50,295 nt of DNA from IMG/VR virus record IMGVR_UViG_3300045988_134262; one strand, written 5' to 3'. The notes under the pieces are model-generated. The model did no database searches. It saw only the letters and a program-made list of their open reading frames with translations, and was not told where the DNA came from. Below are positions 5,826-38,500 of this stretch, in pieces (within the stretch, counting starts at the first letter, position 1; every line of letters begins with the position of its first letter). A program made the translations under genes and the position numbers. This DNA is from a virus.

Positions 5826-6299
5826 ATGGAAATTATTGAATTAAATATTGATGATTTAAAAGCATATGAAAACAATCCAAGAAATAATGATGAAGCCGTT
5901 GAATACGTTAAAAAAAGCATCAAAGAATTTGGAATGAAAGTTCCTTTAGTTATTGATAAGAATAACGTTATTGTAACAGGTCATACGAGATTAAAAGCAT
6001 GTAAGGAATTAGGTTATAAAAAGATTCCTTGCATTGTTGCTGATGATTTAAATGAGGAGCAAATAAACGCTTTTAGATTGGTGGATAATAAAACAAATGA
6101 ATTTGCATCATGGGATTTTGATAAATTAGAAGAAGAATTAAGTTTAATATCTGATATTGATATGAATGACTTTGGTTTTGAAAGCGCAGAAGATATTGAT
6201 ATTGATGCATTTTTTAGTGATGCAGAACCTACAGAAAGCAAGGAAGAAAAGAAGAAAACTATTAAATGTCCTCATTGTGGAGAAGAGATAGAAATATGA
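5826..6299 (+). CDS. ParB N-terminal (ParB/Srx nuclease-like) domain protein with C-terminal zinc ribbon
   Basis: The core is LKAYENNPRNNDEAVEYVKKSIKEFGMKVPLVIDKNNVIVTGHTRLKACKELGYKKIPCIV. The C-terminus carries CPHCGEEI. Its stop overlaps the next start (ATGA). Confidence 0.75.
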   Translation: MEIIELNIDDLKAYENNPRNNDEAVEYVKKSIKEFGMKVPLVIDKNNVIVTGHTRLKACKELGYKKIPCIVADDLNEEQINAFRLVDNKTNEFASWDFDKLEEELSLISDIDMNDFGFESAEDIDIDAFFSDAEPTESKEEKKKTIKCPHCGEEIEI

Positions 6300-7186
6300 T
6301 TATCTATCTAAGTGGACAAGGTGGGATATTTAATCAATCTTACGAAAAGTGGAAAAGGACTAAAAAAAATATGGATATGTACTTAGTGATAAGTGGAGAG
6401 ACAGGAAACCCTCAAATATGTAAGGAAAAATTAGATATGGAAATATATTTAGCAGGTTCAGAAGCACAAGCAAAACAAATGAATGAGGATAATAAAGATA
6501 ATTTATTTAAAGGAACAAATGTATTGCAATCATATTATTATTGTAACGAATTTACTGAAAAAGTAGTTATACCATCATGTGATAGTTTTATGTTGGATAG
6601 TGGCGCTTTTACATTTTTCTCAAGTGGGAAAAATGTAGATTGGAATGATTATATAGAAAAGTATGCTGACTTTATAGTAAGAAATGATGTTAAACTATTT
6701 TTTGAATTAGATATTGATGTTTTAATTGGATATGAAAATGTATTGCGTTTAAGAAAAAAATTAGAATCATTAACGCATAGAAAATGCATACCTGTTTGGC
6801 ATAGGTCAAGAGGATTAGACGAGTTCATCAAAATGTGCAAAGAATATGATTATGTTGCATTAGGTGGAATAGCAATAAAAGAGATAAGCAGAAAAGAATA
6901 TAAATATTTCCCAAAATTAATTAAAATAGCACATGATAACGGAGCAAAAATTCATGGACTAGGGTTTACTAGTTTAAACGGAATAACTAAATATCATTTT
7001 GATAGCGTTGATAGCACATCATGGGTTAGTGGAAACAGATTTGGAAAAGTTTATAAATTTAACGGAAAAACAATGGTATGGTATGACAAAAAAGAAGGTC
7101 AGCGTTTAGCAGATAGCAGAAAAGTAGCAGTTCATAATTTTAAGGAGTGGGCTAAATTTGCTGAATATGCTAAAAATAATTTATAA
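6296..7186 (+). CDS. dpdA: DpdA-like DNA (7-deaza)guanine transglycosylase (TGT superfamily)
   Basis: TGT-like motifs FMLDSGAFTFF (cf. DSGGFQ), ALGGIA, HGLGFT and HFDSVDSTSW (cf. archaeal-type FDSA). It sits directly upstream of queD-queE-folE. Start taken at the ATG at 6296 (GGAG RBS, ATGA overlap). Confidence 0.65.
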   Translation: MIIYLSGQGGIFNQSYEKWKRTKKNMDMYLVISGETGNPQICKEKLDMEIYLAGSEAQAKQMNEDNKDNLFKGTNVLQSYYYCNEFTEKVVIPSCDSFMLDSGAFTFFSSGKNVDWNDYIEKYADFIVRNDVKLFFELDIDVLIGYENVLRLRKKLESLTHRKCIPVWHRSRGLDEFIKMCKEYDYVALGGIAIKEISRKEYKYFPKLIKIAHDNGAKIHGLGFTSLNGITKYHFDSVDSTSWVSGNRFGKVYKFNGKTMVWYDKKEGQRLADSRKVAVHNFKEWAKFAEYAKNNL

Positions 7187-7214
7187 AAGCATTTAGATGA
7201 AAAAGGAGAAAAAT

Positions 7215-7550
7215 ATGTATTATGTTAAAAAAAGAATTGAAGTAAGTGCTAGTCATAAACTTAACTTAAGTTATGAAAGTAAATGTGAAAATCTACATGG
7301 ACATAATTGGATAATTGATATTTACATGAGAAGCGAAGAATTAAATAAAGATGGAATGGTAATGGACTTTACTCATATTCAAAAAGAAATCAAAGATAAA
7401 TTAGACCATAAGAATTTAAATGATGTTCTTTCATTCAACACAACAGCAGAAAATATTGCAAAGTGGATTGCGGATACATTAGGAGAAAAATGCTATAAAG
7501 TTGATGTGCAAGAAAGCGAAAATAATATTGCAACTTATGAGGTAGAATAA
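7215..7550 (+). CDS. queD: 6-carboxy-5,6,7,8-tetrahydropterin synthase
   Basis: C-x3-HGH motif (CENLHGHNW), MVMDF and LDHKNLND. Size is about 110 aa. Confidence 0.85.
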   Translation: MYYVKKRIEVSASHKLNLSYESKCENLHGHNWIIDIYMRSEELNKDGMVMDFTHIQKEIKDKLDHKNLNDVLSFNTTAENIAKWIADTLGEKCYKVDVQESENNIATYEVE

Positions 7551-7551
7551 A

Positions 7552-8208
7552 ATGAAAGTTAATGAAATTTTTAAAAGCATTGACGGAGAAGGATTAAGAA
7601 CAGGAGAATTAACAACTTTTATCAGATTAGCAGGTTGTAATTTAAGATGCTCATACTGCGATACATGTTATGCATTAAAAAATTCTAATGGAACAGAAAT
7701 GTCTGTTGATGAAATTGTTAAAAGGGCAAAAAAATATGATTATAGAAACATCACATTGACAGGAGGAGAACCACTTATTAATAAAGATGTTGATGATTTA
7801 ATTTCTAAATTATGTGAAAATGGGTTTTATGTAAATATTGAAACAAATGGAAGTGTACCTATTGATAAGTACATTTTAAATAAAAACATTCTTATTACAA
7901 TGGATTACAAACTTCCTTCTAGTGGTGTTGAAAAAAATATGAATTTAAACAACTTAGAAAAATTAAGAGCAAATGATGTATTGAAATTTGTTATTGGAAA
8001 AGATGATTTTGATAAAGTTAAGCAGATAATTGAAAAATATAGAATCAAATCATATATTTATTTAAGCCCTGTCTTTGGTGAAATAGAACCTTTTGAAATA
8101 GTTGATTTTATGAAAATAATGCATACACAAGGAATTGATACGTCAAAAATGAGGGTGCAAGTTCAGTTGCATAAAATCATATGGAATCCAAACGAAAGAG
8201 GTGTTTAA
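7552..8208 (+). CDS. queE: 7-carboxy-7-deazaguanine synthase (radical SAM)
   Basis: N-terminus [14 protein letters not shown], cluster motif [10 protein letters not shown], and LTGGEPL. Confidence 0.85.
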
Positions 8209-8209
8209 T

Positions 8210-8776
8210 ATGGATAAGAAAAAAATTGAAAATGCAGTTAGAGAAATTCTTATTGCAATTGGAGAAAATCCCGATCGTGAAGGATTAATTGAGACACCAA
8301 AAAGAGTTGCCAAAATGTATGAGGAAGTGTTTGAAGGCATTCAATATTCAAATGAAGAAATTGCTAAAATGTTTGATAAAAAATTCAAGCAAGAAGGAAA
8401 TGATTTAGTTTTAGTAAAAGATATCCCATGCTTTAGTTACTGCGAGCATCATATCGCATTAATGTATAACATGAGTATTAATATTGCATATATTCCAAAT
8501 GGTTATGTATTAGGTCTTTCAAAATTTGCAAGAATTTCCGACATGGTCTGCAAAAGATTACAGTTACAAGAAAGAATTGGAACAGACATTGCAGATATTT
8601 TAGAAATGATATTAGGAACTGATGATATTGCAGTTGTAATAAATGGAGAGCATTCTTGCATGACTGCAAGAGGTATTAAAAAACCTAATACGAAAACAAG
8701 AACAGCAACATTGCGTGGAAGATTCAAAGAAAACGCTGAATTAAGAAATGAACTATATAATTTACTTTCTAAATAA
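8210..8776 (+). CDS. folE: GTP cyclohydrolase I
   Basis: [33 protein letters not shown] and HSCMTARG are classic FolE blocks. Confidence 0.9.
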
Positions 8777-10118: not shown

Positions 10119-10427
10119 ATGACAAATTTAGAAATTGTTGAAAAAGAAGTGGTTGAAAGAGGATTCTTGACAGAAGAAGAATGTGGAAAGATAATTGGAC
10201 AGTATGGAGAATTACCATACAAAACATATCAAGAATGGAAATATAGTGGTTATCAAGTAAAGAAAGGATCTAAAGCAGTTATAAAAACTAAACTTTGGAA
10301 GAAAGTAAAAAGCAAAAAGAAAGAGGAAGAAAGTGAAGATAAAGAAAACAATAAAAAAGTAAGTAACTTTATTATGGTTACTGCATCATTATTTGATTTA
10401 TCACAAGTTGAAAAAATTGAAGCATAG
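10119..10427 (+). CDS. Hypothetical protein (weak ArdC-N/DUF1738-like flavour)
   Basis: YKTYQEWKYSGYQVKKGSKAV loosely recalls the T..QW...G..VkKGEK motif. The C-terminal half is K/E-rich. The family assignment is unsure. Confidence 0.45.
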   Translation: MTNLEIVEKEVVERGFLTEEECGKIIGQYGELPYKTYQEWKYSGYQVKKGSKAVIKTKLWKKVKSKKKEEESEDKENNKKVSNFIMVTASLFDLSQVEKIEA

Positions 10428-11440: not shown

Positions 11441-12316
11441 TTGGACAATGAATTTATTTTGATTGATAGGGTTGATTCTATCAAGAAAGTTATAAACAAA
11501 TATGGAATTGAAAATTTTGTTATTTCATTTAGTGGAGGAAAAGATTCCACTGTATTATCAAAGTTAATTGATATTGCAATACCTAATAATGATATTCCAA
11601 GGGTATTCATAAATACAGGTATTGAATATAAAGCAATTGTTGATTTTGTGCATGAGAATATGAAAAAGGATAAACGATTTATTGAGATTAAACCATCAAT
11701 ACCTTTAAGCATGATATTTAGAAAATATGGTTATCCTTTTAAATCTAAGGAACATAGTCAATTAGTTCATTTATTTCAGCAAAACGGACATAGCAAAACA
11801 ACTCTTAGATATTATAACCCTCCAGAAAATCGCAAGCGTTTTGGTTGCCCTAAAGTATTAAAATATCAATTTGAAGAAGGAACACAACTTAAAATAAGTG
11901 ATAAGTGTTGCACTAAATTAAAAAAAGAACCATTTACAAAATGGCAAGAAGAAAATAGAAAACCTTATAAAATGACAGGAGAAAGACTTTCGGAGGGTGG
12001 TTTAAGAGCATCTCATAAAGGTTGCTTAGTTATTGATAAGAATAGCAAACTAAAGAAATTTAAACCATTGAATCCTGTCACTAGTGAATGGCTTGAATGG
12101 TTTATAAATGAGTATAAAGTTCAATTATGCAAATTATATGATGAACCTTATAACTTTAAAAGAACAGGTTGTTTAGGGTATCCATTTAATATTAATTTGC
12201 AAGATACATTAGATACTTTAGAAAAGACTTTGCCACTTGAGAAAAAGAAAGCAGAAGCAATTTGGAAAGAAGTATATCAAGAGTATAGGAAATTAAATTA
12301 CAGATTAAAAAGGTAA
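11441..12316 (+). CDS. PP-loop ATP pyrophosphatase, PAPS-reductase-like family
   Basis: SFSGGKDST PP-loop, INTGIEY, CCTKLKKEP, TGERLSEGGLRA and KRTGCLGYP follow the PAPS_reduct block order. The only possible start before the PP-loop is TTG at 11441, and it has no clear SD. Confidence 0.7.
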   Translation: MDNEFILIDRVDSIKKVINKYGIENFVISFSGGKDSTVLSKLIDIAIPNNDIPRVFINTGIEYKAIVDFVHENMKKDKRFIEIKPSIPLSMIFRKYGYPFKSKEHSQLVHLFQQNGHSKTTLRYYNPPENRKRFGCPKVLKYQFEEGTQLKISDKCCTKLKKEPFTKWQEENRKPYKMTGERLSEGGLRASHKGCLVIDKNSKLKKFKPLNPVTSEWLEWFINEYKVQLCKLYDEPYNFKRTGCLGYPFNINLQDTLDTLEKTLPLEKKKAEAIWKEVYQEYRKLNYRLKR

Positions 12317-12535: not shown

Positions 12536-12796
12536 ATGAAAAATATAGTTATTAGAATGTTAAATGGAGATGAATACCACTTGCATAATACAAGAACAAC
12601 AATTTTAATGACAAGAAATTTTGATGATATGAATTTTATTGAAATTGACAACGCTATTGCAAAAGAAATTATATATGTAAAATATTATTATAATTTCCGA
12701 AATGAACCTCCATTGAATTCAAAAGTAAAAGTATTATCAAGTGTTTCAATTAACTCTAATAATATTACATCAATAAATTATTTAGATGAGGAGTAA
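12536..12796 (+). CDS. Hypothetical protein; homologous to the N-terminal domain of 16378..16923
   Basis: V.I.M(L/V)NGDEY.L and IN(S/A)(N/S)NI(T/V)(S/T)I(N/E) blocks are shared with the first 90 aa of the 16378 ORF. Confidence 0.55.
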   Translation: MKNIVIRMLNGDEYHLHNTRTTILMTRNFDDMNFIEIDNAIAKEIIYVKYYYNFRNEPPLNSKVKVLSSVSINSNNITSINYLDEE

Positions 12797-12799
12797 AAA

Positions 12800-13276
12800 A
12801 TGATTAATTGCGAAAGATACATAGATGATATTTTAAAAACTAATAATTGTGATTTTGGATTTAATAAACGTGATAGAAAAATTATAAAATGTGATGCAAA
12901 ATATTGTGATGAATGTTTATTCAATCCGAAAAATTGTGCATATAAATCAACATGTAATGTTTTAAGATTAAAATGGTTGGCTTCTGAAAATAAAGAACCT
13001 ATTAGGTTGAATAGACTTGAATATGAGGTTTTAAAATTCATAGAATTTGGATATATTGCTAGGGATAAAGAAGGAAATTTATTTTCATTTTGGTATAAAC
13101 CAAGAAAATGTAATGATATTTGGGATTGTGATGTTCCTAAGAATCAAAATTATTCACATGATTTAACTTTATTCAATGAATTATTTAAATTTATTAGATG
13201 GGAAGATGCAGAACCAACTTCAATAGAAGAATTATTAAAAAATTGCGAGGTAACTGAAAATGCTGAAAACAGATGA
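12800..13276 (+). CDS. Family A paralog 1 (Cys-rich N-terminus plus conserved W-E/K-D...EP(T/K)SI C-terminal domain)
   Basis: LNRLEYEVLKFI...YIARDKEGNL...LFNELFKFIRWEDAEPTSIEELLKNCEV aligns with four other ORFs. Confidence 0.65.
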   Translation: MINCERYIDDILKTNNCDFGFNKRDRKIIKCDAKYCDECLFNPKNCAYKSTCNVLRLKWLASENKEPIRLNRLEYEVLKFIEFGYIARDKEGNLFSFWYKPRKCNDIWDCDVPKNQNYSHDLTLFNELFKFIRWEDAEPTSIEELLKNCEVTENAENR

Positions 13277-13457
13277 TATTGCTCAATTTGTCGCAATTAG
13301 TGGACTAATGAATTATTGTAAATCTCATGATGATTGCAAAAATTGCAATATGTATAATCTTTGCAATGTACTGACAGGAGAAAAGAAATTAACGTGGGTT
13401 ATTGATAAAATTATATTTGAACATTCAGATAATGAGGAGGAAAAAGAATATGAATAA
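13260..13457 (+). CDS. Small Cys-rich protein
   Basis: YCKSHDDCKNCNMYNLC. The start lies in a conserved junction TTGCGAGGTAACTGAAAATG. Confidence 0.5.
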   Translation: MLKTDDIAQFVAISGLMNYCKSHDDCKNCNMYNLCNVLTGEKKLTWVIDKIIFEHSDNEEEKEYE

Positions 13458-13917
13458 TGGAGAAAAATACAAAGATAAAATTATTGAAGAATATCAAAAT
13501 TTACTAAAAGAAAAAGTTATTGATGGTGATGGCAATAGAATGAATAGAGCAATTAAGGAAATTGCATATAAATATTGTGGAATGAGATTACTTGGCGCAT
13601 CTAGTACATTTGAATGGTTATTTGATGATTATAAAGAACAACCTATCAAATTAACTAGATTAGAATATTTATTATTAAAGTTATTTTATGAAAAAGATTT
13701 TAGGTATTTAACAAGAAGTGCTGGAGGGTTTTTGTATATGAATAAAGGAAATAATCCTCCTCAAAAAAAAGATGGAATGTGGTTTAATTGCGAATCTTAT
13801 ATAACTTATGATGTAATTAATGATTTATTTCAATTTGTGCAGTGGAAAGATGAACAACCTAAATCAATCAAAAAAATACTAAATAACTGCGAAGTATTTG
13901 ATAATGAAGATAACTAA
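13450..13917 (+). CDS. Family A paralog 2 (lacks the Cys-rich N-terminus)
   Basis: LTRLEYLLLKLF...YLTRSAGGFL...INDLFQFVQWKDEQPKSIKKILNNCEV. GGAGG RBS. Confidence 0.65.
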   Translation: MNNGEKYKDKIIEEYQNLLKEKVIDGDGNRMNRAIKEIAYKYCGMRLLGASSTFEWLFDDYKEQPIKLTRLEYLLLKLFYEKDFRYLTRSAGGFLYMNKGNNPPQKKDGMWFNCESYITYDVINDLFQFVQWKDEQPKSIKKILNNCEVFDNEDN

Positions 13918-13961
13918 ATTAATTATTCTTATGAAAAATGGCGATTATTGGAGGGTTTAAA

Positions 13962-14417
13962 ATGATTAATGCAGAAAAATATAAAAATGAATTAAAATCA
14001 TTAAATGATGCAGATAAATTATGGTGTAGTGCTTTTAATAAATATGATATGACTTTTGACAGTTGTGTAAATGTAAAATGTGAAAATTGTGCATTTAGCG
14101 GTGGCAAAGGTTGCAGGGTAGAACGTTATAATTGGCTATTATCTGAGTATATCGAACATATTGAGGTTAGCGAGTTTGAATATAAGATTCTTAAATATCT
14201 AGCAGATAAAACAAGACATATGTATATCGCAAGAGATAAAAGCGGAAGCCTATATCTCTATGATTCTGAGCCTTGCAAGAGCAACACTAAAAATTTGTGG
14301 ATTGGTAAAGGTACACCACAACTAACACCATTTAATAAACTGTTTAAATTTATCACGTGGGAAGATGATAAACCAACATCAATCAAAGATGTTTTAGATA
14401 ATTGCATTATTAAATGA
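13962..14417 (+). CDS. Family A paralog 3
   Basis: MINAEKYKNEL, a C-x13-C-x4-C-x2-C-x7-C block, YIARDKSGSL and FNKLFKFITWEDDKPTSIKDVLDNC. Confidence 0.65.
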   Translation: MINAEKYKNELKSLNDADKLWCSAFNKYDMTFDSCVNVKCENCAFSGGKGCRVERYNWLLSEYIEHIEVSEFEYKILKYLADKTRHMYIARDKSGSLYLYDSEPCKSNTKNLWIGKGTPQLTPFNKLFKFITWEDDKPTSIKDVLDNCIIK

Positions 14418-14434
14418 AATTATGAAAATAATTG

Positions 14435-14463
14435 TTGATATTATATGTAATACATAGTATAAT
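14435..14463 (+). promoter_or_regulatory. Conserved early promoter copy 3 (TTGATA-17-TATAAT) with ATGTAATACAT in the spacer
   Basis: Read directly. It lies inside the paralog array. Confidence 0.65.
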
Positions 14464-14495
14464 TTACTTGTAAATTGAAAAGGAGGAATAATGAT

Positions 14496-14771
14496 ATGAA
14501 AATAAAACTTAGAACACAGTACGTATTTGAAGGTCTAGAGGATAGATATGAAACATTGCAAAAAATTTTAAAACATAATTTTGGAATTGCTGAATCGAAT
14601 GATGAAGTAGCCGTATTATGTAATGTTATGAATTGCGATAAGTGTAAATATTTTAATGAGGATTATCCTTGTGCAACGCAAGAGGTTTTAGAATTATTAC
14701 ATTTAATTACAATGTTAAGAAAACAAAATTGTCAATATACAGAAATTGAAATTGAAGAAACGGGGCATTAG
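14496..14771 (+). CDS. Small Cys-rich protein
   Basis: AAGGAGG RBS. Contains CNVMNCDKCKYFNEDYPC. Confidence 0.5.
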   Translation: MKIKLRTQYVFEGLEDRYETLQKILKHNFGIAESNDEVAVLCNVMNCDKCKYFNEDYPCATQEVLELLHLITMLRKQNCQYTEIEIEETGH

Positions 14772-14774
14772 AAA

Positions 14775-15248
14775 ATGATTAACGCTGAAAAATTCAAAGA
14801 TGAATTAAGAATAATTATTGATTCAAATAAATTAAATGATTGCGCATTTAGAAAAAATAATAAAACATTTTGTGAGTGTTCTGATACTTTTTGCGAAAAT
14901 TGCATATTTGATAACAGAAAAGGCTGTCAGTACGGACGCATAAAGTGGATGCTTTCAGAGTATAAAGAAGGGATCGTTTTATCAAAACTTGAATATGCAC
15001 TTTTAAAATATATTTTTAACAGAACAAAATATAGATACATTGTTAGAAGTAAACTTGGAGAAGTTTTCGTTTATGAGAACGAACCAATAAAAAACGGTGA
15101 TGATTGGAGCGTTCTTTTAAATGGTGGAGGATTTACAACTATAGTGTTTTTAAGTGAATTATTCAAATTTATAAAATGGTCTGATTTAACAGCAATATCA
15201 ATAAAAGATGTTCTTGCTGATTGTAATGTTATTGATGATAATTATTAA
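14775..15248 (+). CDS. Family A paralog 4
   Basis: MINAEKFKDEL, a Cys block ending CENC, YIVRSKLGEV and LSELFKFIKWSDLTAISIKDVLADC. Confidence 0.65.
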   Translation: MINAEKFKDELRIIIDSNKLNDCAFRKNNKTFCECSDTFCENCIFDNRKGCQYGRIKWMLSEYKEGIVLSKLEYALLKYIFNRTKYRYIVRSKLGEVFVYENEPIKNGDDWSVLLNGGGFTTIVFLSELFKFIKWSDLTAISIKDVLADCNVIDDNY

Positions 15249-15290
15249 TAAAAAAATGATATTAAAAATAGAGTGAGTGGGTTAGATAAT

Positions 15291-15623
15291 ATGAACGTTA
15301 TTTCTATGGAACTGCATGAGGAGCAGATAACAGAGTTACAAAGTAAGATTGAAGAATTAGAAAGCGAAAAGCATTGTTTAGAAGAAGAATTAGAAGATTT
15401 AAAAATTGAAAATGATGATTTGGAAGACAGATATAAAAGTTATAAAGAAACATATCAAAGTGTATTGAATATTTATAATGATAATTTAAAAAAGTTAGAT
15501 GATATGCAAAAATTAAATAGTAAATTAGTTAAAAATAATAAAGAATCTAATAGAGATTTCTTTATTCTTGCAACAGCATATGCTATTACATTAATTATAA
15601 TTATTTACTTATTTATTTTATAA
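15291..15623 (+). CDS. Coiled-coil protein with C-terminal TM anchor
   Basis: An E/L/K heptad-like N-terminus is followed by FFILATAYAITLIIIIYLFIL. Confidence 0.5.
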   Translation: MNVISMELHEEQITELQSKIEELESEKHCLEEELEDLKIENDDLEDRYKSYKETYQSVLNIYNDNLKKLDDMQKLNSKLVKNNKESNRDFFILATAYAITLIIIIYLFIL

Positions 15624-15635
15624 TAGGAGAATGTT

Positions 15636-15875
15636 ATGGAAGATTATAGAACATGTGAATATGAAGATAAAAAATATATATTCCACTGTTTTGAACAATG
15701 GTCAAACGTTATAGGAGAATCTCCTATGATTGGTGGACATTCAGCAGGACAAATTAGTCTTGTGTTTGCCATAATAGAAGATTCAAAAGGCAATATCTAT
15801 CGTGTTGAGCCTACAAATATTAAATTTACCGATAATAAATATATTGATTATTTTTGGGGATTAGACGAGGAGTGA
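15636..15875 (+). CDS. Hypothetical protein
   Basis: ORF with an AGGAG RBS. Confidence 0.5.
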   Translation: MEDYRTCEYEDKKYIFHCFEQWSNVIGESPMIGGHSAGQISLVFAIIEDSKGNIYRVEPTNIKFTDNKYIDYFWGLDEE

Positions 15876-15880
15876 TATAT

Positions 15881-16042
15881 ATGTTATTACATATATTAGA
15901 AAATGTATTTTATATATTTGCTATTATAATGCTGATTATTGGTATTCTTATTGCAATATCAGTAATTGCTATAGCAGTATTCATTATAATGTCGGTATTT
16001 GTAAATGGAATTGTAGAAGATAAGGAGAACAATAATTTATGA
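15881..16042 (+). CDS. Small membrane protein
   Basis: GAGGAG RBS. Almost entirely hydrophobic. Confidence 0.45.
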   Translation: MLLHILENVFYIFAIIMLIIGILIAISVIAIAVFIIMSVFVNGIVEDKENNNL

Positions 16043-16206
16043 CAATAGAAGAATTAAGAAATAAAATAATTGATACGTTGAACGATCAAAAAGTTCGCAT
16101 TGAAGGTGATGAAAGAGATGAGTATTTTAATTACGGTGTTAATACTTGCATAAATTATATTGAAGATATTTTTAAAGAATATGAGGAATCAAAAAATGAT
16201 TGTTAA
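16039..16206 (+). CDS. Small hypothetical protein (55 aa)
   Basis: ATGA overlap with the upstream gene. AAGGAG lies upstream. Too short for the supplied ORF track. Confidence 0.4.
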   Translation: MTIEELRNKIIDTLNDQKVRIEGDERDEYFNYGVNTCINYIEDIFKEYEESKNDC

Positions 16207-16375
16207 TGATAAAAAATTGCACTTATTACTTGAAATGATAAATTTTGTAGCAAACTGCAATTATGTGTATTTTAATTGGTATGGAGAAAGATGTAGGTAT
16301 CAGTTAGATTGCAATGAAAAATGTCCATTCTACAATGTTGAAAATATGATGAAATGGGTAAAAGAAGGAGATTAA
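16196..16375 (+). CDS. Small Cys-rich protein
   Basis: GAGGAA RBS. Contains CRYQLDCNEKCPFYN. Confidence 0.5.
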   Translation: MIVNDKKLHLLLEMINFVANCNYVYFNWYGERCRYQLDCNEKCPFYNVENMMKWVKEGD

Positions 16376-16377
16376 GT

Positions 16378-16923
16378 ATGACTAAATTAAATGTAACTAT
16401 TGAGATGGTTAACGGTGATGAATATTTAATTAAAAAAGACTGTTTTAATCCTAATGAGTACATTAAACAAATGAAAGAAAAACTTAAAAATAATGAAGCA
16501 ATTGAAATTCATGAGGATTATGAATTTTGTTGCAATGATAAAGTGGGCTACAGAACAATAAAACCAACAATAGAAGAACCTTTATTAATCAACGCTTCAA
16601 ACATTGTAACTATTGAATTTGAGAAAGAGCAAATTAAAGAAAAGATTAAGTTAACAAAATTTGAACGTGATATATTAAAACATTGCTTATATAAAAATCG
16701 TAATTATATTGCAAGAGATTATAACGATAACCTAAAAGTATATGAGTATCCACCAAAGAAAGATGGAAAAACTTGGGAAAATTTAATTGATTCCGATAAT
16801 TTAAATTTATGTGAAGATATGTTTTTATGCGTATCATGGAATGATGAAGAACCAACATCAATCGCAGAGTTATTAAAAAATTGTGATAAAGATTGCGAGG
16901 TTACTGAAAATGACAGTAAATGA
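16378..16923 (+). CDS. Family A paralog 5 (12536-like N-terminal domain fused to the family A C-terminal domain)
   Basis: The N-terminus is VTIEMVNGDEYLI...INASNIVTIE. The C-terminus is LTKFERDILKHC...YIARDYNDNL...WNDEEPTSIAELLKNC..CEV. Confidence 0.65.
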   Translation: MTKLNVTIEMVNGDEYLIKKDCFNPNEYIKQMKEKLKNNEAIEIHEDYEFCCNDKVGYRTIKPTIEEPLLINASNIVTIEFEKEQIKEKIKLTKFERDILKHCLYKNRNYIARDYNDNLKVYEYPPKKDGKTWENLIDSDNLNLCEDMFLCVSWNDEEPTSIAELLKNCDKDCEVTENDSK

Positions 16924-17152
16924 AGTATTGGAAAAAATGAATAATGAAGCAACTGCTGTAGTAATTACTATTGGTGGCGATGGTTATTTTATTTGTGCGT
17001 ATAAAAAAGATTTAATAAACAATAAGTGTTTTAAAGAAAAAGTAGGAGATAGAACTGTAACACATTTAGGAGTTACAAGAACATCAAAAGGAGGATTTGG
17101 AATAGCGATCCAATGTGTTATAAATAAAGAGGAGAATAAAAATGATAACTAG
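16910..17152 (+). CDS. Hypothetical protein
   Basis: The start lies in the conserved junction TTGCGAGGTTACTGAAAATG, the same as at 13241-13262. Confidence 0.5.
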   Translation: MTVNEVLEKMNNEATAVVITIGGDGYFICAYKKDLINNKCFKEKVGDRTVTHLGVTRTSKGGFGIAIQCVINKEENKNDN

Positions 17153-17492
17153 ACCAAAATTTGAAGATTATGGATTCCCTAAATCTGAAAATGATTTAGA
17201 ACAATTTGAATTTTATACTTATTATTTAGAGGAGTATTGTGATGAGTTAGAAAAAGCACTTGATAATGCTTGCAAGTATATTCATAATGACGGAATAGAC
17301 GGTTGCCCTTGTAACTATGATTTATCAATAATTTCAGATAAAAAAATGAATGAATGTAATATATGTGATTATCAATGTATTAGTTTCTATGATGAATTAA
17401 ATAGTAGTAAACAACAACAGTATGAATATTTAAAAAAATCCATGAAATGTTGGAAAGAGTATTTTTTAAGAGGAGATGCAGAAAATGATTAA
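17142..17492 (+). CDS. Cys-rich hypothetical protein
   Basis: GAGGAG RBS. Contains CPCNYD...CNICDYQC. Confidence 0.5.
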   Translation: MITRPKFEDYGFPKSENDLEQFEFYTYYLEEYCDELEKALDNACKYIHNDGIDGCPCNYDLSIISDKKMNECNICDYQCISFYDELNSSKQQQYEYLKKSMKCWKEYFLRGDAEND

Positions 17493-18126: not shown

Positions 18127-18318
18127 GTGATAACATTGAACGAAAAAACAAGCAAAGCACAACTTAAAGCAAGTGCAAAATACAATAAGATGAATACAAA
18201 GAATTTTCCTATAAAAGTAAATAAGAAGACAGAAAAAGATATTTACGATCATTTAGAAAAAATTGGAAATGTTAATGGATATATTAAGAATTTAATTAAA
18301 GCAGATATCGAACGCTAA
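18127..18318 (+). CDS. Small ribbon-helix-helix-like DNA-binding protein (candidate regulator)
   Basis: The pattern KASAKYNKMNTKNFPIKVNKKTEKDIYDHLEKIGNVNGYIKNLIKADI recalls small Firmicute RHH/CopG-like proteins. The start is ambiguous between GTG 18127 and TTG 18136. Confidence 0.45.
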   Translation: MITLNEKTSKAQLKASAKYNKMNTKNFPIKVNKKTEKDIYDHLEKIGNVNGYIKNLIKADIER

Positions 18319-18336
18319 AAAGCGTTCATTTTTTTA
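18310..18336 (+). terminator. Rho-independent terminator
   Basis: GAACGC-taaaaa-GCGTTC followed by ATTTTTTT. It overlaps the stop codon. Confidence 0.75.
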
Positions 18337-18339
18337 TTA

Positions 18340-18438
18340 TGTAAAAAATGTAAAAGAATGAGTAAAGTTCGTTGTAAAAAATGTAATAATATGCATAAAA
18401 TTCGTTGTAAAAAATGTAAAAACATGTATAATATTAAT
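18340..18438. repeat. Three tandem 33-bp repeats (TGTAAAAAATGTAAnAnnATGnnTAAnnTTCGT)
   Basis: Units at 18340, 18373 and 18406, read directly. Confidence 0.8.
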
Positions 18439-18604
18439 TGAGGTGAATAGGACACCTCACTTTGGTCGTCAGTAGTTTGTCGTTTTGGTTTACTTGTTTT
18501 CATTTTGGTTTTGTGTCCTCCAAAACACATGAAAGGGTGATTCCTTTCAAAGGGGCTATATATTATATAGTTCCTTTTTTTGTTGCAAAAATAATCAAAA
18601 ATGC

Positions 18605-18633
18605 TTGATTGTATGTGATACATATAGTATAAT
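18605..18633 (+). promoter_or_regulatory. Conserved early promoter copy 5 (TTGATT-17-TATAAT) with ATGTGATACAT in the spacer
   Basis: Read directly. Confidence 0.65.
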
Positions 18634-18662
18634 AAGTATGTAAAGAAAGAGAGGATATAAAA

Positions 18663-18839
18663 ATGAGAGCAAGAATTTATTTAAATGGAAAGAGAATTAC
18701 AAAAAAGAAAGCAAGGGAATTATTTGGAAATGAAAAAGTAGAAAAAAGAATTCAAGAAGCAGAAGAAAGTTTCATTAATGATCCATATGAAGAAATTTCA
18801 TGGATGGACGGAATGGAAATAAGATTTGTATTTAAATAA
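18663..18839 (+). CDS. Small hypothetical protein (58 aa)
   Basis: Conserved leader with an AGAGAGG RBS. Flanked by a promoter copy and a terminator. Too short for the supplied ORF track. Confidence 0.5.
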   Translation: MRARIYLNGKRITKKKARELFGNEKVEKRIQEAEESFINDPYEEISWMDGMEIRFVFK

Positions 18840-18842
18840 ATT

Positions 18843-18866
18843 AAGGTGAGAAATCACCTTTTTTTA
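18843..18866 (+). terminator. Rho-independent terminator
   Basis: AAGGTGA-gaaa-TCACCTT followed by a T-run. Confidence 0.8.
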
Positions 18867-18877
18867 TTTAAAAAATA

Positions 18878-18905
18878 TTGAAAACATTATGAAAATGAGT
18901 ATAAT
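18878..18905 (+). promoter_or_regulatory. Sigma-A-like promoter (TTGAAA-16-TATAAT) lacking the dyad operator
   Basis: Read directly. It drives the ORF-free segment below. Confidence 0.5.
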
Positions 18906-19176
18906 AATACTTGCAACCAAGAGTTGCAAAGATGCATGTTCTTTTACTCAATTTCTTAAATCATTTTTATATAAGCACTTGAAAATAGTGCTTATAAATA
19001 CACCTATAATTCAATAGTAGAATAATCTCCTTATAAGGGAAATACGGAGGGGCAGAACCTTCTAGGTGTACCATCAATGTATCGTTTTTCATTAGTTTTT
19101 TTCTTAAATTTAGTACGAGGAAAACAGAACACTTTTTTCCAAAAGAAGGCAGTGAAGTTATCACTGTCTTTTTTTT
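18906..19176 (+). ncRNA. Candidate structured RNA or regulatory leader (promoter to terminator, no credible ORF)
   Basis: Hairpins at 18911-18929 (7 bp) and 18971-18995 (9 bp). An 8-bp long-range stem pairs 18999-19006 with 19063-19070. A terminator lies at 19148-19176. Confidence 0.4.
19148..19176 (+). terminator. Rho-independent terminator immediately upstream of the late gene block
   Basis: GGCAGTGA-agtta-TCACTGTC followed by T8. Confidence 0.75.
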
Positions 19177-19969: not shown

Positions 19970-21070
19970 ATGGAAAACAAAACAGTATACGGAATACAAG
20001 ATAATAAATGCTTAGTTGAAATGTATGATAAAGAAACTATCAACATTAAATCAAGTATGCCTGTTTCTAGCAGAGGTTATATTTTTATCGGTGATTCGTA
20101 CGGAGATGGATATACTCCAGATGGCAGTGGTGGTGGAGTTGGTTGGTGCGATAGGTTAAAATCTAAAATGATTAATTGCCATGCTAATGCTAATAACATT
20201 TTCATCAATCATAAAGGAGGAGCGTGCTTTAGTAATCCATCAAATGATTATTTAACACTTTTAAAAGGTGTAGCAAATCAGATTTCCGACAAAAACATTA
20301 TTACTGATGTATTGATCGGAGGTGGATACAATGAACTGCCATATGGAGACCAAAAAGAAAAAGTGCAAGGTTGTATAAATACATTAATTGATTATGTGCA
20401 AAGCACTTATCCTAACGCAGTTGTTCACTTTGCACCATTCGGAGTTGCATTTAAAAATAGGGATAATCAATTTGCATTGAAATATAAATTGATTCCTATG
20501 TATAGAAGTATATCAGCATATAGTCATAAACCTTATATGGTTGTTCCTGGAGCAGAAAATATTCTTTCATTAAGGGATACAATGAGTTCTGATGGAATAC
20601 ACCCTAATTCATGGGGATTAAGTTGTATAGCAGAATATCTGAAAGGTTATCTCATGGGAACTGGAAGTAATATGCAAGAAAAACGTCAGTTATCTGTCAG
20701 AATGAACGGAGGAACATTCAATGGCACTATATATGGACAATCATTCGGAGATATAAATATTTATAGAATTATGTTTGATAAAGGTGTTAATAATCTAAAT
20801 TCTTACAAAACGAATGGATTTAAACTATATACTCCTAATGATAGAGATGCATTCCCATGGAGAGCGCCTAACTTTGGATATACAAGTAATTATGCAATCA
20901 TATATGGAAATAATGGATGGCATACTGTTCCTGTTAGATTCAACGTAACAAATAATAACGAACTATATATGCAGATATTTCAAACTAATTCAAGTAATAG
21001 TGATTATGAAAGTTATTCAAACATTACTAATATTCAGTTAGATGCATGGATTGTCGCTGAAAATATGTAA
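19970..21070 (+). CDS. SGNH/GDSL hydrolase domain protein with C-terminal extension (probable virion-associated esterase)
   Basis: Block I is FIGDSYGDG and block V is SDGIHPN. Located in the fibre gene block. Confidence 0.65.
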   Translation: MENKTVYGIQDNKCLVEMYDKETINIKSSMPVSSRGYIFIGDSYGDGYTPDGSGGGVGWCDRLKSKMINCHANANNIFINHKGGACFSNPSNDYLTLLKGVANQISDKNIITDVLIGGGYNELPYGDQKEKVQGCINTLIDYVQSTYPNAVVHFAPFGVAFKNRDNQFALKYKLIPMYRSISAYSHKPYMVVPGAENILSLRDTMSSDGIHPNSWGLSCIAEYLKGYLMGTGSNMQEKRQLSVRMNGGTFNGTIYGQSFGDINIYRIMFDKGVNNLNSYKTNGFKLYTPNDRDAFPWRAPNFGYTSNYAIIYGNNGWHTVPVRFNVTNNNELYMQIFQTNSSNSDYESYSNITNIQLDAWIVAENM

Positions 21071-35571: not shown

Positions 35572-38500
35572 ATGGCAAAAGGTAAGGCTAAAGAAGTAAC
35601 AACTAAATTTAAAGTTGATATATCTGATTTTAAAAAAGGTATTACAGAAGCAAATAAGCAGATAAAACTTGCGAATGCTCAATTTAAAGAAGCAAGTTCT
35701 AAAATGGACGATTGGTCAAAGTCTACTGATGGACTTCAAGCAAAAATCAAGCAACTAAATTCTATAATTGAACAGCAAGAAAAGAAGTTGAATGCTTTAA
35801 AAGGAGAACAGGCAGAATATACAAAGGCTCAAGAAGAAGCAGAAAAACATGCAGAAGACTTAAGAAAGCAGATTGCAGAATTATCAAAGCAGTATGAGGA
35901 AAGCGTAAAAGCAACAGGAGAAAACTCCGAAGCATCAAAAGAATTAAAAGGTAACCTTACAGAACTTCAAAAGGAATTGAATCAGACAGTTAAGGAGCAG
36001 GAGCGAAATAAAAAAGCATCTGAAAATCTTAGCATAACAATATTGAATCAACAGGCATCTATAAACAAAACAAAGAGAGAATTAAGCAGTTATGAAAATG
36101 CTTTAAATGATGTTGAAAAAGAAAGTGTTGATACAAGAACATCACTTGAAAGACTTGAAGATACTATAAACAGTCAAGAAAAAGAGATTAAGGAATTAAA
36201 GAATGCATATATGAATGCATCACTTAAGTTTGGAGAAACATCAAGTGAAGCACAAAGCCTTGCATCAAAGATTACTAGTTTGAATGGAGACCTTGACAAG
36301 AACAAGGAAACCATGAATAACTTGAAAAGCAGTGCAAATAAATTAGGTGGCTCATTAGAGGAGACAGGAGAAGAAGCAAGAAATTCTAGCGACGGCTATA
36401 CAATTCTAAAAGATGTTGTTTCAGACTTAGCAAGCAAGGTTATTCAAGAAGCAATACAAGCATTTAAGGATTTAGCAACTGAAGGAGGAAAATCGTTAGA
36501 CCAACTACAAGCATCAACAGGTTCAAGCAATAAAGAAATGAAAGATTTCAAAGATGTGCTTGATGATCTTTATAAAAATAATTATGGCGATAGTTGGGAA
36601 GATTTAGCAGAAAAGATTTCCTTAGTTAAACAGCAGACTTCAAACATGGATTTAGGTTCTGATGAAATTAAAAACATGACAAAGAATCTTATTGTTCTTC
36701 AAGATACATTTGGAATGGATTTCAATGAAACACTTAGAGGTGTTCAAGGGTTAATGCAGAATATGGGTGTTAGTGCTGATGAAGCGTTTGACTTGATTGC
36801 TAAAGGCGCTCAAAATGGTTTGAACAAATCGGGCGAATTAGGTGACAACATTGCTGAATATTCGCAGTTATGGGGTCAAGCAGGATTTAGCGCAGAAGAG
36901 ATGTTTAAGATTCTTCAAAATGGTGTTGATAGTGGTGCATATAACCTTGATAAAGTTAATGATTTAGTAAAAGAAATTGGAATATCTATGGTTGACGGAC
37001 GTTTTGAGGAACAGATGGGAAACTTCTCAACTAAAACACAAGAATTATTTAAATCATGGAAAGATGGAAAAGCAACACAAGCAGATGTATTTAAGTCAAT
37101 CATTAATGATTTATCAACTGCAAAAGATAAGCAGAAATTATTGACAGTTGCTAGTGATACATGGAGTGCATTGGGAGAAGATAATGCAATGAAGGTTATC
37201 TCCTCATTAAATAATGTTAATGATACATATGATGATGTCGCAGGAACTATGAAAAAAGTTGATAATGTTAAATATGATAATTTAGCAAGTCAATGGACAG
37301 AAATAGGCAAAACACTTGAGGTTAATCTTATTCAGCCTATTGTGAACACATTAGAACCTGTTTTAACTGATTTATTAAAATTCGTTATTAAAAATATTGG
37401 TGTTATTGCACCGATTGTAGCAGGAGTTGCAACGGCTTTTGGAGTACTAGCAGGAGCGTTAGCAATTCAAGGACTTATAAGTGGAGTTCAGAAAGCATTT
37501 GCATTATTGAATGCAACAATTGCAATGAACCCGTTTGTATTAATTGCTAGTGCAATAGCAGGATTAGTTGTTGCATTGATATACTTGTGGAATAATTCAG
37601 AAGCATTCAGAAAATTTTGGATTGGTGCATGGGATACTATAGTAGGAGCATGTAAAACAGCAATTGATGATATTACTTCATTCTTTGGTGGCGCATGGGA
37701 TTTAATAACTGGAGTATGGGGTGGATTAGTTGATTTCTTTAGTACGTTATTTGATGGTATCATTAGTGTATTTTCTTCTATCGGTTCATTCTTTAGTGAT
37801 TTATTCAGTTCTATTGTTTCAGTTATCGAAGGAATATGGAGTGGATTAGTTGCAATATTTACAGATGTTTATGCAAGAATGGTTGAAGTGTTCCAACCTT
37901 CTATTGATTTATTCACTAGCATTTTTGGAACTATATTCAGTAATATCAAAATAACGTTTGATAATATAGTTATTATATTTCAATTTGTTTGGTCAAAAAT
38001 AGTTGAAATATTTTCTCCTGTCATTGCTTTTATTACAGATGTATTCACAAGTGCATATAACGGAATACAAGGTGCATGGAATAGTGTTGTAGGATTTTTT
38101 GCAGGAATATGGAATGGAATAGTCAGCATTTATAACGATGTTTCTTCATGGTTCTCAAGTGTTTTTAGTGGAGCAGTTAAAGGAATACAAGGAGCATGGA
38201 ATAGTGTTGTATCATTCTTTGGAGGAGTATGGAATGGTATTCAAGGAATATTCAATGCTGTAAGTTCATGGTTTGGTGGAATTTTCCAAAGTGCATGGAA
38301 TGCAGTAAAAGGAGCGTTCAGCAATGTAGGAAGTTTCTTTGGTGGAATATGGAACACTATTAAATCAGTATTTACAAACATAGGACAGAAAGTAGGACAG
38401 GCAGTTGGAGGAGCATTTAAGAGTGCTATTAATGCAGTACTTAGAACAGCGGAAAATGTTTTAAATTCTCCTATCAATGCCATTAATAGTTTGATTGGAA

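Follow-up and report, generated by a model that had tools for sequence, protein, structure and literature searches.

A window of 50,295 nucleotides, the whole stretch of DNA that was analysed, comes from an Erysipelotrichales phage of the gut, ~50 kb in size. It carries, at the distal end of an early/middle operon, five + strand genes (paralogs A to E, starting at 12800, 13450, 13962, 14775 and 16378; Table 1) with a common C-terminal domain of ~90 residues. This raises the question whether the genes form a genuine family and, if so, what such a family does for the phage. The array is real, consisting of five diverged, old paralogs in tandem, interspersed with other genes. A hidden Markov model (HMM) of the C-terminal domain was built from homologs and run against all ORFs in the window. 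It matched exactly A to E (E 5e-31 to 2e-37) and the next-best ORF gave E 0.006; no sixth copy of the domain was found in the window. Pairwise BLASTP scores among the five range from 45 to 126 bits, the highest being that of C and D (45% identity), and judging by these scores their similarity is far above chance level. The tandem array of five diverged paralogs proposed in the preliminary description was thus borne out. The alignment spans the entire C-terminal ~90 residues, as had been claimed, and the C-terminal pattern given there agrees with the invariant columns E, L, K, Y, R, P, K, W, F, W, D, S, I, L and C. The five genes, estimated at ~2.4 kb, sum to 2421 nt. The preliminary description had held that its proposal could fall with an insignificant alignment or with a match to a housekeeping phage family; the alignment is highly significant, and no such match was found. 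A Shine-Dalgarno-like sequence precedes every proposed ATG (5/5), with gaggag for A, gaggagg for B, ggaggg for C and the weakest (cgggg) for D. Chance resemblance, or a non-coding artefact of AT-rich sequence, was considered as well, as the genome has 24-37% G+C and such sequence yields many spurious ORFs. However, this explanation is refuted by the HMM E-values, hundreds of homologs, dN/dS well below 1, the Shine-Dalgarno-like sites and the confident structure prediction for paralog C, leaving it a negligible probability.

Table 1 Genes of the array and genes lying between them (positions in the window)
Feature	Position (nt)	Strand	Length (aa)	Modules and remarks
Stand-alone homolog of the N'-module of E	12536-12796	+	86	Stops 4 nt before the start of A
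Paralog A	12800-13276	+	158	Cys-rich N-module, residues 1-62; C-module, residues 63-158 (nt 12986-13273)
Small Cys-motif protein	13260-13457	+	65	C-x5-C-x2-C-x5-C; overlaps the start of B by 8 nt
Paralog B	13450-13917	+	155	Cys-less N-module homologous to those of A, C and D; C-module nt 13630-13914
Paralog C	13962-14417	+	151	Cys4 N-module (C35, C40, C43, C51); C-module nt 14145-14414
Small Cys-motif protein	14496-14771	+	91	Stops 3 nt before D
Paralog D	14775-15248	+	157	Cys4 N-module; C-module nt 14958-15245
Coiled-coil protein, hydrophobic C-terminus	15273-15623	+		Filler within the array
PHROG 6072 protein	15636-15875	+		Filler within the array
Hydrophobic protein	15854-16042	+	62	Filler within the array
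Acidic protein	16039-16206	+	55	Filler within the array
Small Cys-motif protein	16196-16375	+	~59	Length from ATG 16196; stops 2 nt before E
Paralog E	16378-16923	+	181	Beta-rich N'-module, residues 1-86, 'NGDEY' motif; C-module nt 16636-16920

The paralogs are two-module proteins in which a swappable N-module and a constant C-module of ~90 residues are joined by a conserved linker (KWLLSEYKEPIKL). Matches to the C-domain HMM include A (2e-37), B (5e-31) and E (9e-34), while the N-module HMM matches A at 9e-23 and B at 3e-10. The N-terminal Cys block reported earlier for three copies is present in A, C and D, but its first Cys is not conserved; the pattern is C-x4-C-x2-C-x5-12-C, with all four Cys invariant across 25 diverse N-modules. 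These four residues are of the metal-ligand type and are arranged in two knuckles, and the N-module of A, C and D is probably zinc-binding. Metals are not modelled by AlphaFold. In the paralog C model the N-module is a hairpin with helices (pLDDT 84-93), for which no PDB fold match was found. A RING finger was rejected: the C3HC4 RING is an eight-ligand cross-brace pattern, whereas in the N-module just four Cys, and no His, are conserved, and 3-6 of the 125 members have Pfam RING matches, all with E >= 0.036. Paralog B is homologous to A across its entire length (residues 1-157 aligned) with the Cys ligands lost, and its N-module is a decayed form of that of A, C and D. The N'-module of E is unrelated to the N-module of A to D and belongs to a family of 128 clusters, among them stand-alone proteins of this type. 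In eight homologs the N-module corresponds to one window paralog and the C-module to a different one. Elsewhere the C-domain is found alone, frequently as a stand-alone protein of ~95 aa, duplicated, or attached to one of several partners, namely DUF1642, a 'MKYKVGDKV'-type N-terminal extension or the N' module.

The C-module is predicted to consist of a helix, a small beta-sheet of 4-5 short strands, a hypervariable loop and a conserved LF-x-F-x-x-W-x-D-x-x-P-x-x-I segment. Its core is constant and variability is concentrated in one indel-prone segment after an invariant Trp. Four polar residues (E, R, K and D) are invariant, because of which a catalytic or ligand-binding site is possible. 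The AlphaFold model of paralog C (pLDDT 90.5) shows two separately folded domains. Foldseek searches of the PDB with the models of C and E gave no significant fold match (none at E <= 0.001), and a PDB sequence search gave no match to the domain. No Pfam-A family matched A to E at the curated threshold, and A to D had no match even at E <= 1. Paralog E had four sub-threshold matches, the best to Bac_DNA_binding (E 0.0085), whose cutoff of 22.4 bits exceeds the 16.8 bits obtained, and scattered sub-threshold matches were all that Pfam gave across 125 homologs. NCBIfam had no match for family proteins, and no enzyme family was matched in Pfam, NCBIfam or PHROGs. The sensitive profile searches and structure prediction proposed in the preliminary description have thus yielded neither a curated family nor a significant fold match. 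All five proteins do match PHROG 22292 (A 1.6e-26, B 6.5e-16, C 2.9e-27, D 8.2e-27, E 3.7e-15), over the full length in A to D and over the C-module only in E (residues 79-174). Weaker links exist to PHROGs 1972 and 21026, and distant C-domain proteins match these PHROGs too. PHROG 22292 is annotated as function unknown and thus supplies a name without a function. Targeting of the variable segment by a diversity-generating retroelement is not supported, as no near-identical template repeat was found; the best DNA repeats between array copies are 63-76% identical.

The description of the domain as novel therefore holds for Pfam, NCBIfam and the PDB, but the family was already known as PHROG 22292. 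Moreover, the C-domain superfamily is much larger than this PHROG implies, with at least 3082 metagenome clusters at 50% identity, carried mostly by gut phages of Erysipelotrichales and almost entirely by uncultured gut phages. Among 79 IMG/VR loci, one copy was counted in 51, two in 24 and three in 5, the last including two loci whose genes are frameshift-split and another pair taken as two windows from a single contig. Close relatives of the window phage have three or five copies each (at least two in L091), giving an overall range of 1-5 in related phages. Of the five copies, E is best conserved and the sole one present in every close relative (85-94% identity); D is identical to database protein P0001. 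This gain and loss of genes, with only E constant, fits the birth-death evolution suggested earlier. Against orthologs, dN/dS is 0.1-0.5 gene-wide for all copies (A 0.23-0.40, D 0.18, E 0.09-0.19), indicating purifying selection and no obvious arms race by point mutation. In B, values of 1.2-1.7 for the N-module, where dS is low, contrast with 0.19-0.33 for the C-module. Diversification proceeds via module swapping and gene turnover instead of point mutation.

No + strand terminators were found inside the array, a cluster of terminators follows at 18.3-19.2 kb, and the array genes appear to be co-transcribed. Their neighbours include a DpdA/QueE/FolE 7-deazaguanine cluster and ParB-like, ArdC-N-like and PAPS-reductase-like proteins. 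In relatives L095-L097 an N6/N4 DNA methyltransferase is inserted after D. In Thomasclavelia phage TR-TP1 the single copy has thymidylate synthase, a dUTPase-like gene and further small genes around it.

From the genomic setting of A to E and the way they evolve, we infer an anti-defence or host-factor-binding role, in which they would be binding adaptors without enzymatic activity that serve host takeover or counter-defence. This reading is tentative, with a probability of roughly 35%. Such adaptors would be made early in infection and neutralise or redirect host factors. The C-module would act as common scaffold or docking unit, target specificity would be set by the N-module and the hypervariable loop, and genes gained or lost, together with recombination at the linker, would diversify the repertoire. 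The adaptor reading is supported by the real coding genes, their modularity, the hypervariable segment, the turnover, the context and the lack of an enzyme-family match. Against it speak the gene-wide purifying selection, without the signature of a point-mutation arms race, the invariant E, R, K and D of the C-module, and the weak Sm/LSm-like hits discussed below, which fit nucleic-acid binding equally well. No similarity of the family to known anti-defence proteins was found, and guilt by association is weak here because the early region of the phage is full of uncharacterised small genes. Multi-copy modular accessory families are familiar in viruses, e.g. Bro-N/KilA-type proteins and phage anti-defence islands with variable content. 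The array resembles these in its small early genes, variable copy number, domain swapping and fast turnover in close relatives, and in adjoining anti-restriction and DNA-modification genes, but has no sequence or fold relationship to them. The more specific proposal, that the C-module is an undescribed fold forming the constant docking scaffold of a combinatorial toolkit for counter-defence or host takeover, retargeted to different host factors by swappable N-modules and the hypervariable loop, with 1-5 linker-recombined adaptors per Erysipelotrichales phage, is clearly unlikely.

An unlikely alternative is that the proteins are nucleic-acid-binding regulators or chaperones, with an Sm/LSm-like barrel as C-module, maybe assembled in rings, and a Cys4 zinc ribbon, which bind RNA or ssDNA and tune expression or replication. 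Zinc ribbons commonly bind nucleic acids. Sm, LSm and Hfq proteins have an N-terminal helix followed by a strongly bent five-stranded antiparallel sheet, form hexameric or heptameric rings and bind RNA. The predicted C-module has the same order of elements, a helix and then a short antiparallel beta-meander, and nearly all of the best 50 listed Foldseek matches of the paralog E model are Sm/LSm chains (E 0.02-0.2, target TM ~0.5 over ~78 columns). However, these matches are below significance, the search output does not report which domain of E is aligned, and of the five models of E only the best, at 80.9, has reasonable confidence (the others reach ~60). The higher-confidence model of C did not repeat the result (LSm chains at E ~4 only). 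Sm1/Sm2 motifs are lacking as well, with no Pfam LSM/Hfq match in the five proteins or 125 homologs. The C-module furthermore adds a conserved C-terminal segment of ~35 residues, and, unlike typical RNA binders, the modules range from neutral to acidic (pI 4.8-7.0 and net charge 0 to -6 for the C-module).

SUKH-type proteins occur in tandem 'polyimmunity' arrays, and the tandem diverged small paralogs with variable copy number studied here could similarly neutralise toxins or effectors, a different one for each paralog, or serve superinfection exclusion. Small membrane proteins are interspersed at 15273-16042, and weak SMI1/KNR4 (SUKH-1) Pfam matches were obtained for 5 of 125 members (best E 0.019). 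We regard an immunity array as very unlikely, since these matches are under the Pfam threshold and concern 4% of members only, SUKH structures are absent from the best 50 listed matches of both Foldseek PDB searches, and there are no toxin genes near the array. It is likewise improbable that the proteins are housekeeping accessory subunits of DNA replication or modification, e.g. specificity factors for 7-deazaguanine or PAPS-reductase-like systems. Such a role would agree with the array's position beside the deazaguanine cluster and the PAPS-reductase-like gene, all of them on one strand and apparently in one operon, and with the same gene order in relatives L083 and L095. However, a copy number of 1-5 and paralog types swapped between close relatives are unusual for core machinery, phage TR-TP1 has no such modification cluster in the 12-kb stretch examined, and the C-domain often stands alone.

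As the evidence stands, the array is real and its domain uncharacterised, but the family was already catalogued and is not conceptually surprising: it is another phage accessory family that is well documented but uncharacterised. The two-module family could reasonably be entered in screens for host takeover or counter-defence. If the adaptor reading is true, this is a large superfamily with a clear modular logic, almost entirely in uncultured gut phages, and a ready source of new inhibitors of host factors or defence for Erysipelotrichales, a clinically relevant and poorly studied gut group. Whatever its function, the C-domain merits an entry of its own in a curated family database and an experimental structure, because it is abundant, confidently predicted and without significant fold match in the PDB.

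The small genes next to the paralogs differ in their relation to the modules. The ORF at 12536-12796 was rejected as a sixth copy, being a homolog of the N'-module of E only (hhalign probability 72%, E 3.5e-5, 75 columns, ortholog alignments A5 and A6); it is kept at the same position in relatives (71-85% identity). The protein encoded at 13260-13457 (81-92% identity in relatives, dN/dS 0.16-0.23) is unsupported as an N-module relative (hhalign probability 0.7%). That at 14496-14771 is possibly a distant one, with E 0.007 under the N-module HMM among the window ORFs; its gene occurs without D in relative L092, and D without this gene in L095. The protein at 16196-16375 has a weak whole-length likeness to the N-module (hhalign probability 26%, E 7e-4, 51 columns, A7 and A8), and its gene is present 5' of E in the scanned relatives L083 and L091-L097. 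The set of filler genes at 15273-16206 (+ strand) varies between relatives.

Paralogs A-E, five plus-strand ORFs, were confirmed to be homologous over their last ~90 residues (the C-module) by alignment, by BLASTP (pairwise scores of 45-126 bits), by profile search and by their common match to PHROG 22292, a phage protein cluster of unknown function (E 4e-15 to 3e-27). A C-module profile made from database homologs and run on all six-frame ORFs of the window matched exactly these five (E 5e-31 to 2e-37; the runner-up ORF had E 0.006), which settles the significance of the alignment. The invariant alignment columns are those listed in the preliminary description, and the summed length of the five genes is 2421 nt where about 2.4 kb had been given. 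A Shine-Dalgarno-like sequence precedes every proposed ATG, the one of paralog D being weaker. An artefact is excluded; the array is a real, constrained, modular and multi-copy accessory family. The window is AT-rich (24-37% G+C) and, at about 50 kb, looks like a complete phage genome.

Each paralog has a front and a rear module with a conserved linker between them (consensus KWLLSEYKEPIKL). The Cys block noticed earlier in three copies was found in the front part (N-module) of A, C and D. Its four cysteines, C-x4-C-x2-C-x5-12-C, are invariant across 25 diverse homologs and point to a predicted zinc-binding knuckle. Paralog B is homologous over its full length but has lost the cysteines of the N-module. 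Paralog E carries a different, beta-rich front part (N'-module), of which the 86-aa ORF in front of paralog A is a stand-alone homolog (hhalign probability 72%, E 3.5e-5); position 12536, where the array was initially taken to start, belongs to this ORF. The N' family comprises 128 database clusters, stand-alone E-type versions among them. The array contains or borders on four small Cys-rich ORFs, of which three adjoin a paralog start codon, namely those immediately before B, D and E. For all four, homology to the N-module is weak or unsupported. The ORF that precedes D gave an HMM E value of 0.007, the one that precedes E an hhalign probability of 26%, and for the one that precedes B no support was found. 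An obligate cassette of small ORF plus paralog was rejected, as some relatives have paralog D without the small ORF in front of it and others have that ORF without D. Two further ORFs inside the array are predicted to be of membrane type.

Features of the window in and around the paralog array
Feature	Position	Strand	Remarks
Exonuclease, Erf	48-50 kb	+	
HNH endonuclease, DnaD-like initiator	after exonuclease/Erf	+	
ParB-like protein	between DnaD-like initiator and 7-deazaguanine cluster	+	
Queuine tRNA-ribosyltransferase/DpdA-like (DpdA/TGT-like) gene	6266-7186	+	7-deazaguanine set
117-aa ORF	7197-7550	+	
QueE-like radical SAM gene	7552-8208	+	7-deazaguanine set
GTP cyclohydrolase I gene	8201-8776	+	7-deazaguanine set
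ArdC-N-like (anti-restriction) protein	10119-10427	+	102 aa; Pfam 28.7 bits (cutoff 22.6); PHROG anti-restriction match
PAPS-reductase-like PP-loop protein	11441-12316	+	just upstream of array
Stand-alone N'-module homolog	12536-12796		86 aa
Paralog A	12800-13276	+	ORF
Small Cys-rich ORF	13260-13457		
Paralog B	13450-13917	+	ORF; N-module 13450-13629
Paralog C	13962-14417	+	ORF
Small Cys-rich ORF	14496-14771		
Paralog D	14775-15248	+	ORF
Coiled-coil protein	15273-15623		predicted membrane-type; hydrophobic C-terminus; weak PHROG 'hemolysin' match
Very hydrophobic ORF	15854-16042		predicted membrane-type; 62 aa
Small Cys-rich ORF	16196-16375		
Paralog E	16378-16923	+	ORF
Small Cys-rich ORF	17142-17492		
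Hairpin cluster	18310-19175	both	terminator-like
366-aa protein	19970-21070		PHROG 31573 (function unknown), E 6e-176

On the plus strand the exonuclease and Erf genes are followed by the HNH/DnaD-like genes, the ParB-like gene, the 7-deazaguanine cluster, the ArdC-N-like and PAPS-reductase-like genes, the array and finally a group of hairpins. Together with the 117-aa ORF, the DpdA/TGT-like, QueE-like and GTP cyclohydrolase genes make up a 7-deazaguanine DNA-modification set (6266-8776); the DNA of this phage probably carries a modification. The likely identity of the 117-aa ORF is that of the PTPS (QueD-type) counterpart, since the gene directly upstream of QueE in the relative L095 has a PTPS domain. 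The ArdC-N-like gene is also present in the relatives L083 and L095. In L083 (4026-8594), two longer PAPS_reduct+DUF3440 proteins, two ParB_N proteins and an SNF2 helicase are found instead of the PAPS-reductase-like gene, a set that resembles an IbrA/IbrB-like pairing. No plus-strand terminators were found inside the array. Between 8500 and 20000, 10 terminator-like hairpins were counted against 1.8 expected from shuffles, and 9 of the 10 cluster at 18.3-19.2 kb on both strands, marking where the early/middle block gives way to the next one. The array apparently sits at the end of the early/middle operon. Relatives' counterparts of the 366-aa protein at 19970-21070 gave weak GDSL-lipase Pfam matches.

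Gene order in the closest relatives is the same as in the window. All five paralogs are present in three of them (L095-L097; 69-95% identity) and three paralogs each in L083, L092, L093 and L094; paralog E is the only copy present in every close relative. In L095 (7993-8844), as well as in L096 and L097, the array has gained an inserted N6/N4 DNA methyltransferase gene, placed immediately behind D and missing from the window; the array is therefore a hotspot for accessory gene insertion. Among 79 IMG/VR loci, 51 have one copy within +/-10 kb, 24 have two and 5 have three, the three-copy loci including two in which frameshifts break up a single gene and two that come from one contig. The copies within the window diverged long ago: none shares more than 76% DNA identity with another, even in the best-conserved stretch, which excludes recent duplication or gene conversion inside the window. 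A DGR target was likewise rejected, no template repeat being found. In eight homologs from the database, the two modules correspond to different paralogs of the window (for example the N-module to that of C and the C-module to that of D, or the N-module to that of B and the C-module to that of E), so the modules appear to recombine at the linker. Diversity in the family arises by gene turnover and module swapping. Comparison with orthologs gave dN/dS values of 0.1-0.5 for each paralog, lowest in E. The N-module of paralog B gave 1.2-1.7 in three non-independent comparisons with a dS of only 0.065, values not significantly above 1, against about 0.2 for its C-module; the pattern would fit constraint having relaxed once the metal ligands were lost. 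In the wider family, the C-module core is strongly conserved, and the segment past the invariant Trp is hypervariable and indel-prone.

The constant scaffold, hypervariable loop, swappable N-modules, near-neutral charge, lack of an enzyme signature and counter-defence-type neighbours together favour a tentative reading (probability about 0.35) in which A-E would act as protein-binding adaptors for host takeover or counter-defence. The earlier comparison to anti-defence proteins or host-factor binders is reasonable as a hypothesis. The main rival, an Sm-like nucleic-acid binder, is rather unlikely. It draws on the AlphaFold model of paralog E (best model pLDDT 80.9, the remaining four near 60), for which Foldseek returned from the PDB a coherent list of Sm/LSm proteins at non-significant scores (E 0.02-0.2, target TM about 0.5). 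This resemblance, for which the tool reported no aligned range, may serve as a lead; the order of elements, a helix and then about five strands as in Sm/LSm, would match the C-module. The Sm/LSm matches were not reproduced with the better model, that of paralog C (pLDDT 90.5). A DNA mimic or general nucleic-acid binder was rejected as the charge is near neutral. In the confident paralog C model, whose low pTM (0.61) is consistent with two independently folded domains, the C-module starts with a helix and four short strands, which a long loop connects to a final helix and strand. In Foldseek searches the model had no match in the PDB (best E about 1), and in BFVD it matched only 'uncharacterized' phage proteins.

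It is improbable that the copies form an immunity-type array, and a role as housekeeping accessory subunits is equally improbable. Sub-threshold Pfam matches to RING fingers and SUKH-1 are scattered in a few percent of family members; a SUKH identity was rejected for want of fold support, and a RING finger because only four Cys are conserved. A PD-(D/E)xK nuclease was dismissed since the acidic residue ahead of P-x-K varies in the alignment. Multi-copy modular early-gene families are familiar in phages, and the C-module family will not surprise the specialist; as a clearly defined target it lends itself well to structure determination and to anti-defence screens.

The preliminary description had called the domain novel. 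It is indeed uncharacterised: profiles of the C-, N- and N'-modules found no match in Pfam, NCBIfam or PDB sequences. The array region had no megablast match among 50,697 phage records, and literature on DUF1642 and on Thomasclavelia phages yielded nothing relevant. The domain is not newly discovered, however: a PHROG for it exists already, and metagenomes contain it in abundance. Word-indexed searching returned 386 homolog clusters at 90% identity, all unnamed or 'hypothetical protein' and many on contigs of about 50 kb, while HMMER, run exhaustively with the C-module profile against clusters at 50% identity, gave 3082 at E <= 1e-3 and 797 at E <= 1e-10. The C-module occurs alone (about 95 aa), with a 50-70-aa N-extension, in two copies per protein, or fused to DUF1642 or to a 'MKYKVGDKV'-type N-terminal extension. 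Tandem C-modules or partial internal duplications were seen in one locus (L078, 10181-10627) and in the proteins P0121, P0205, P0143, P0134 and P0210, so that the domain multiplies within genes too, not only between them.

The members that are cultured or assigned point to Erysipelotrichales. The few cultured relatives found by tblastn, phages of Thomasclavelia ramosa and Clostridium innocuum, are annotated 'hypothetical', and a Coprobacillaceae chromosome also carries a member. One cultured relative is instead labelled 'putative ankyrin repeat protein L23', a name left unsupported by the results: 125 family members, the labelled protein itself lying outside the scan, gave no ankyrin Pfam match. 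Phage tblastn gave no support for the domain being common among phages of Lactococcus, Streptococcus or Staphylococcus. A profile scan of genome contigs gave only two partial matches, both in one Erysipelotrichaceae MAG. A weak tblastn match to the C-module (E 3e-4) lies at 37056-37250 of MT774392.1 / NC_055885.1, the uncultured phage cr128_1 from human faeces; the cr name, possibly of a crAss-like phage, hints that the domain may extend beyond phages of Firmicutes-type hosts.
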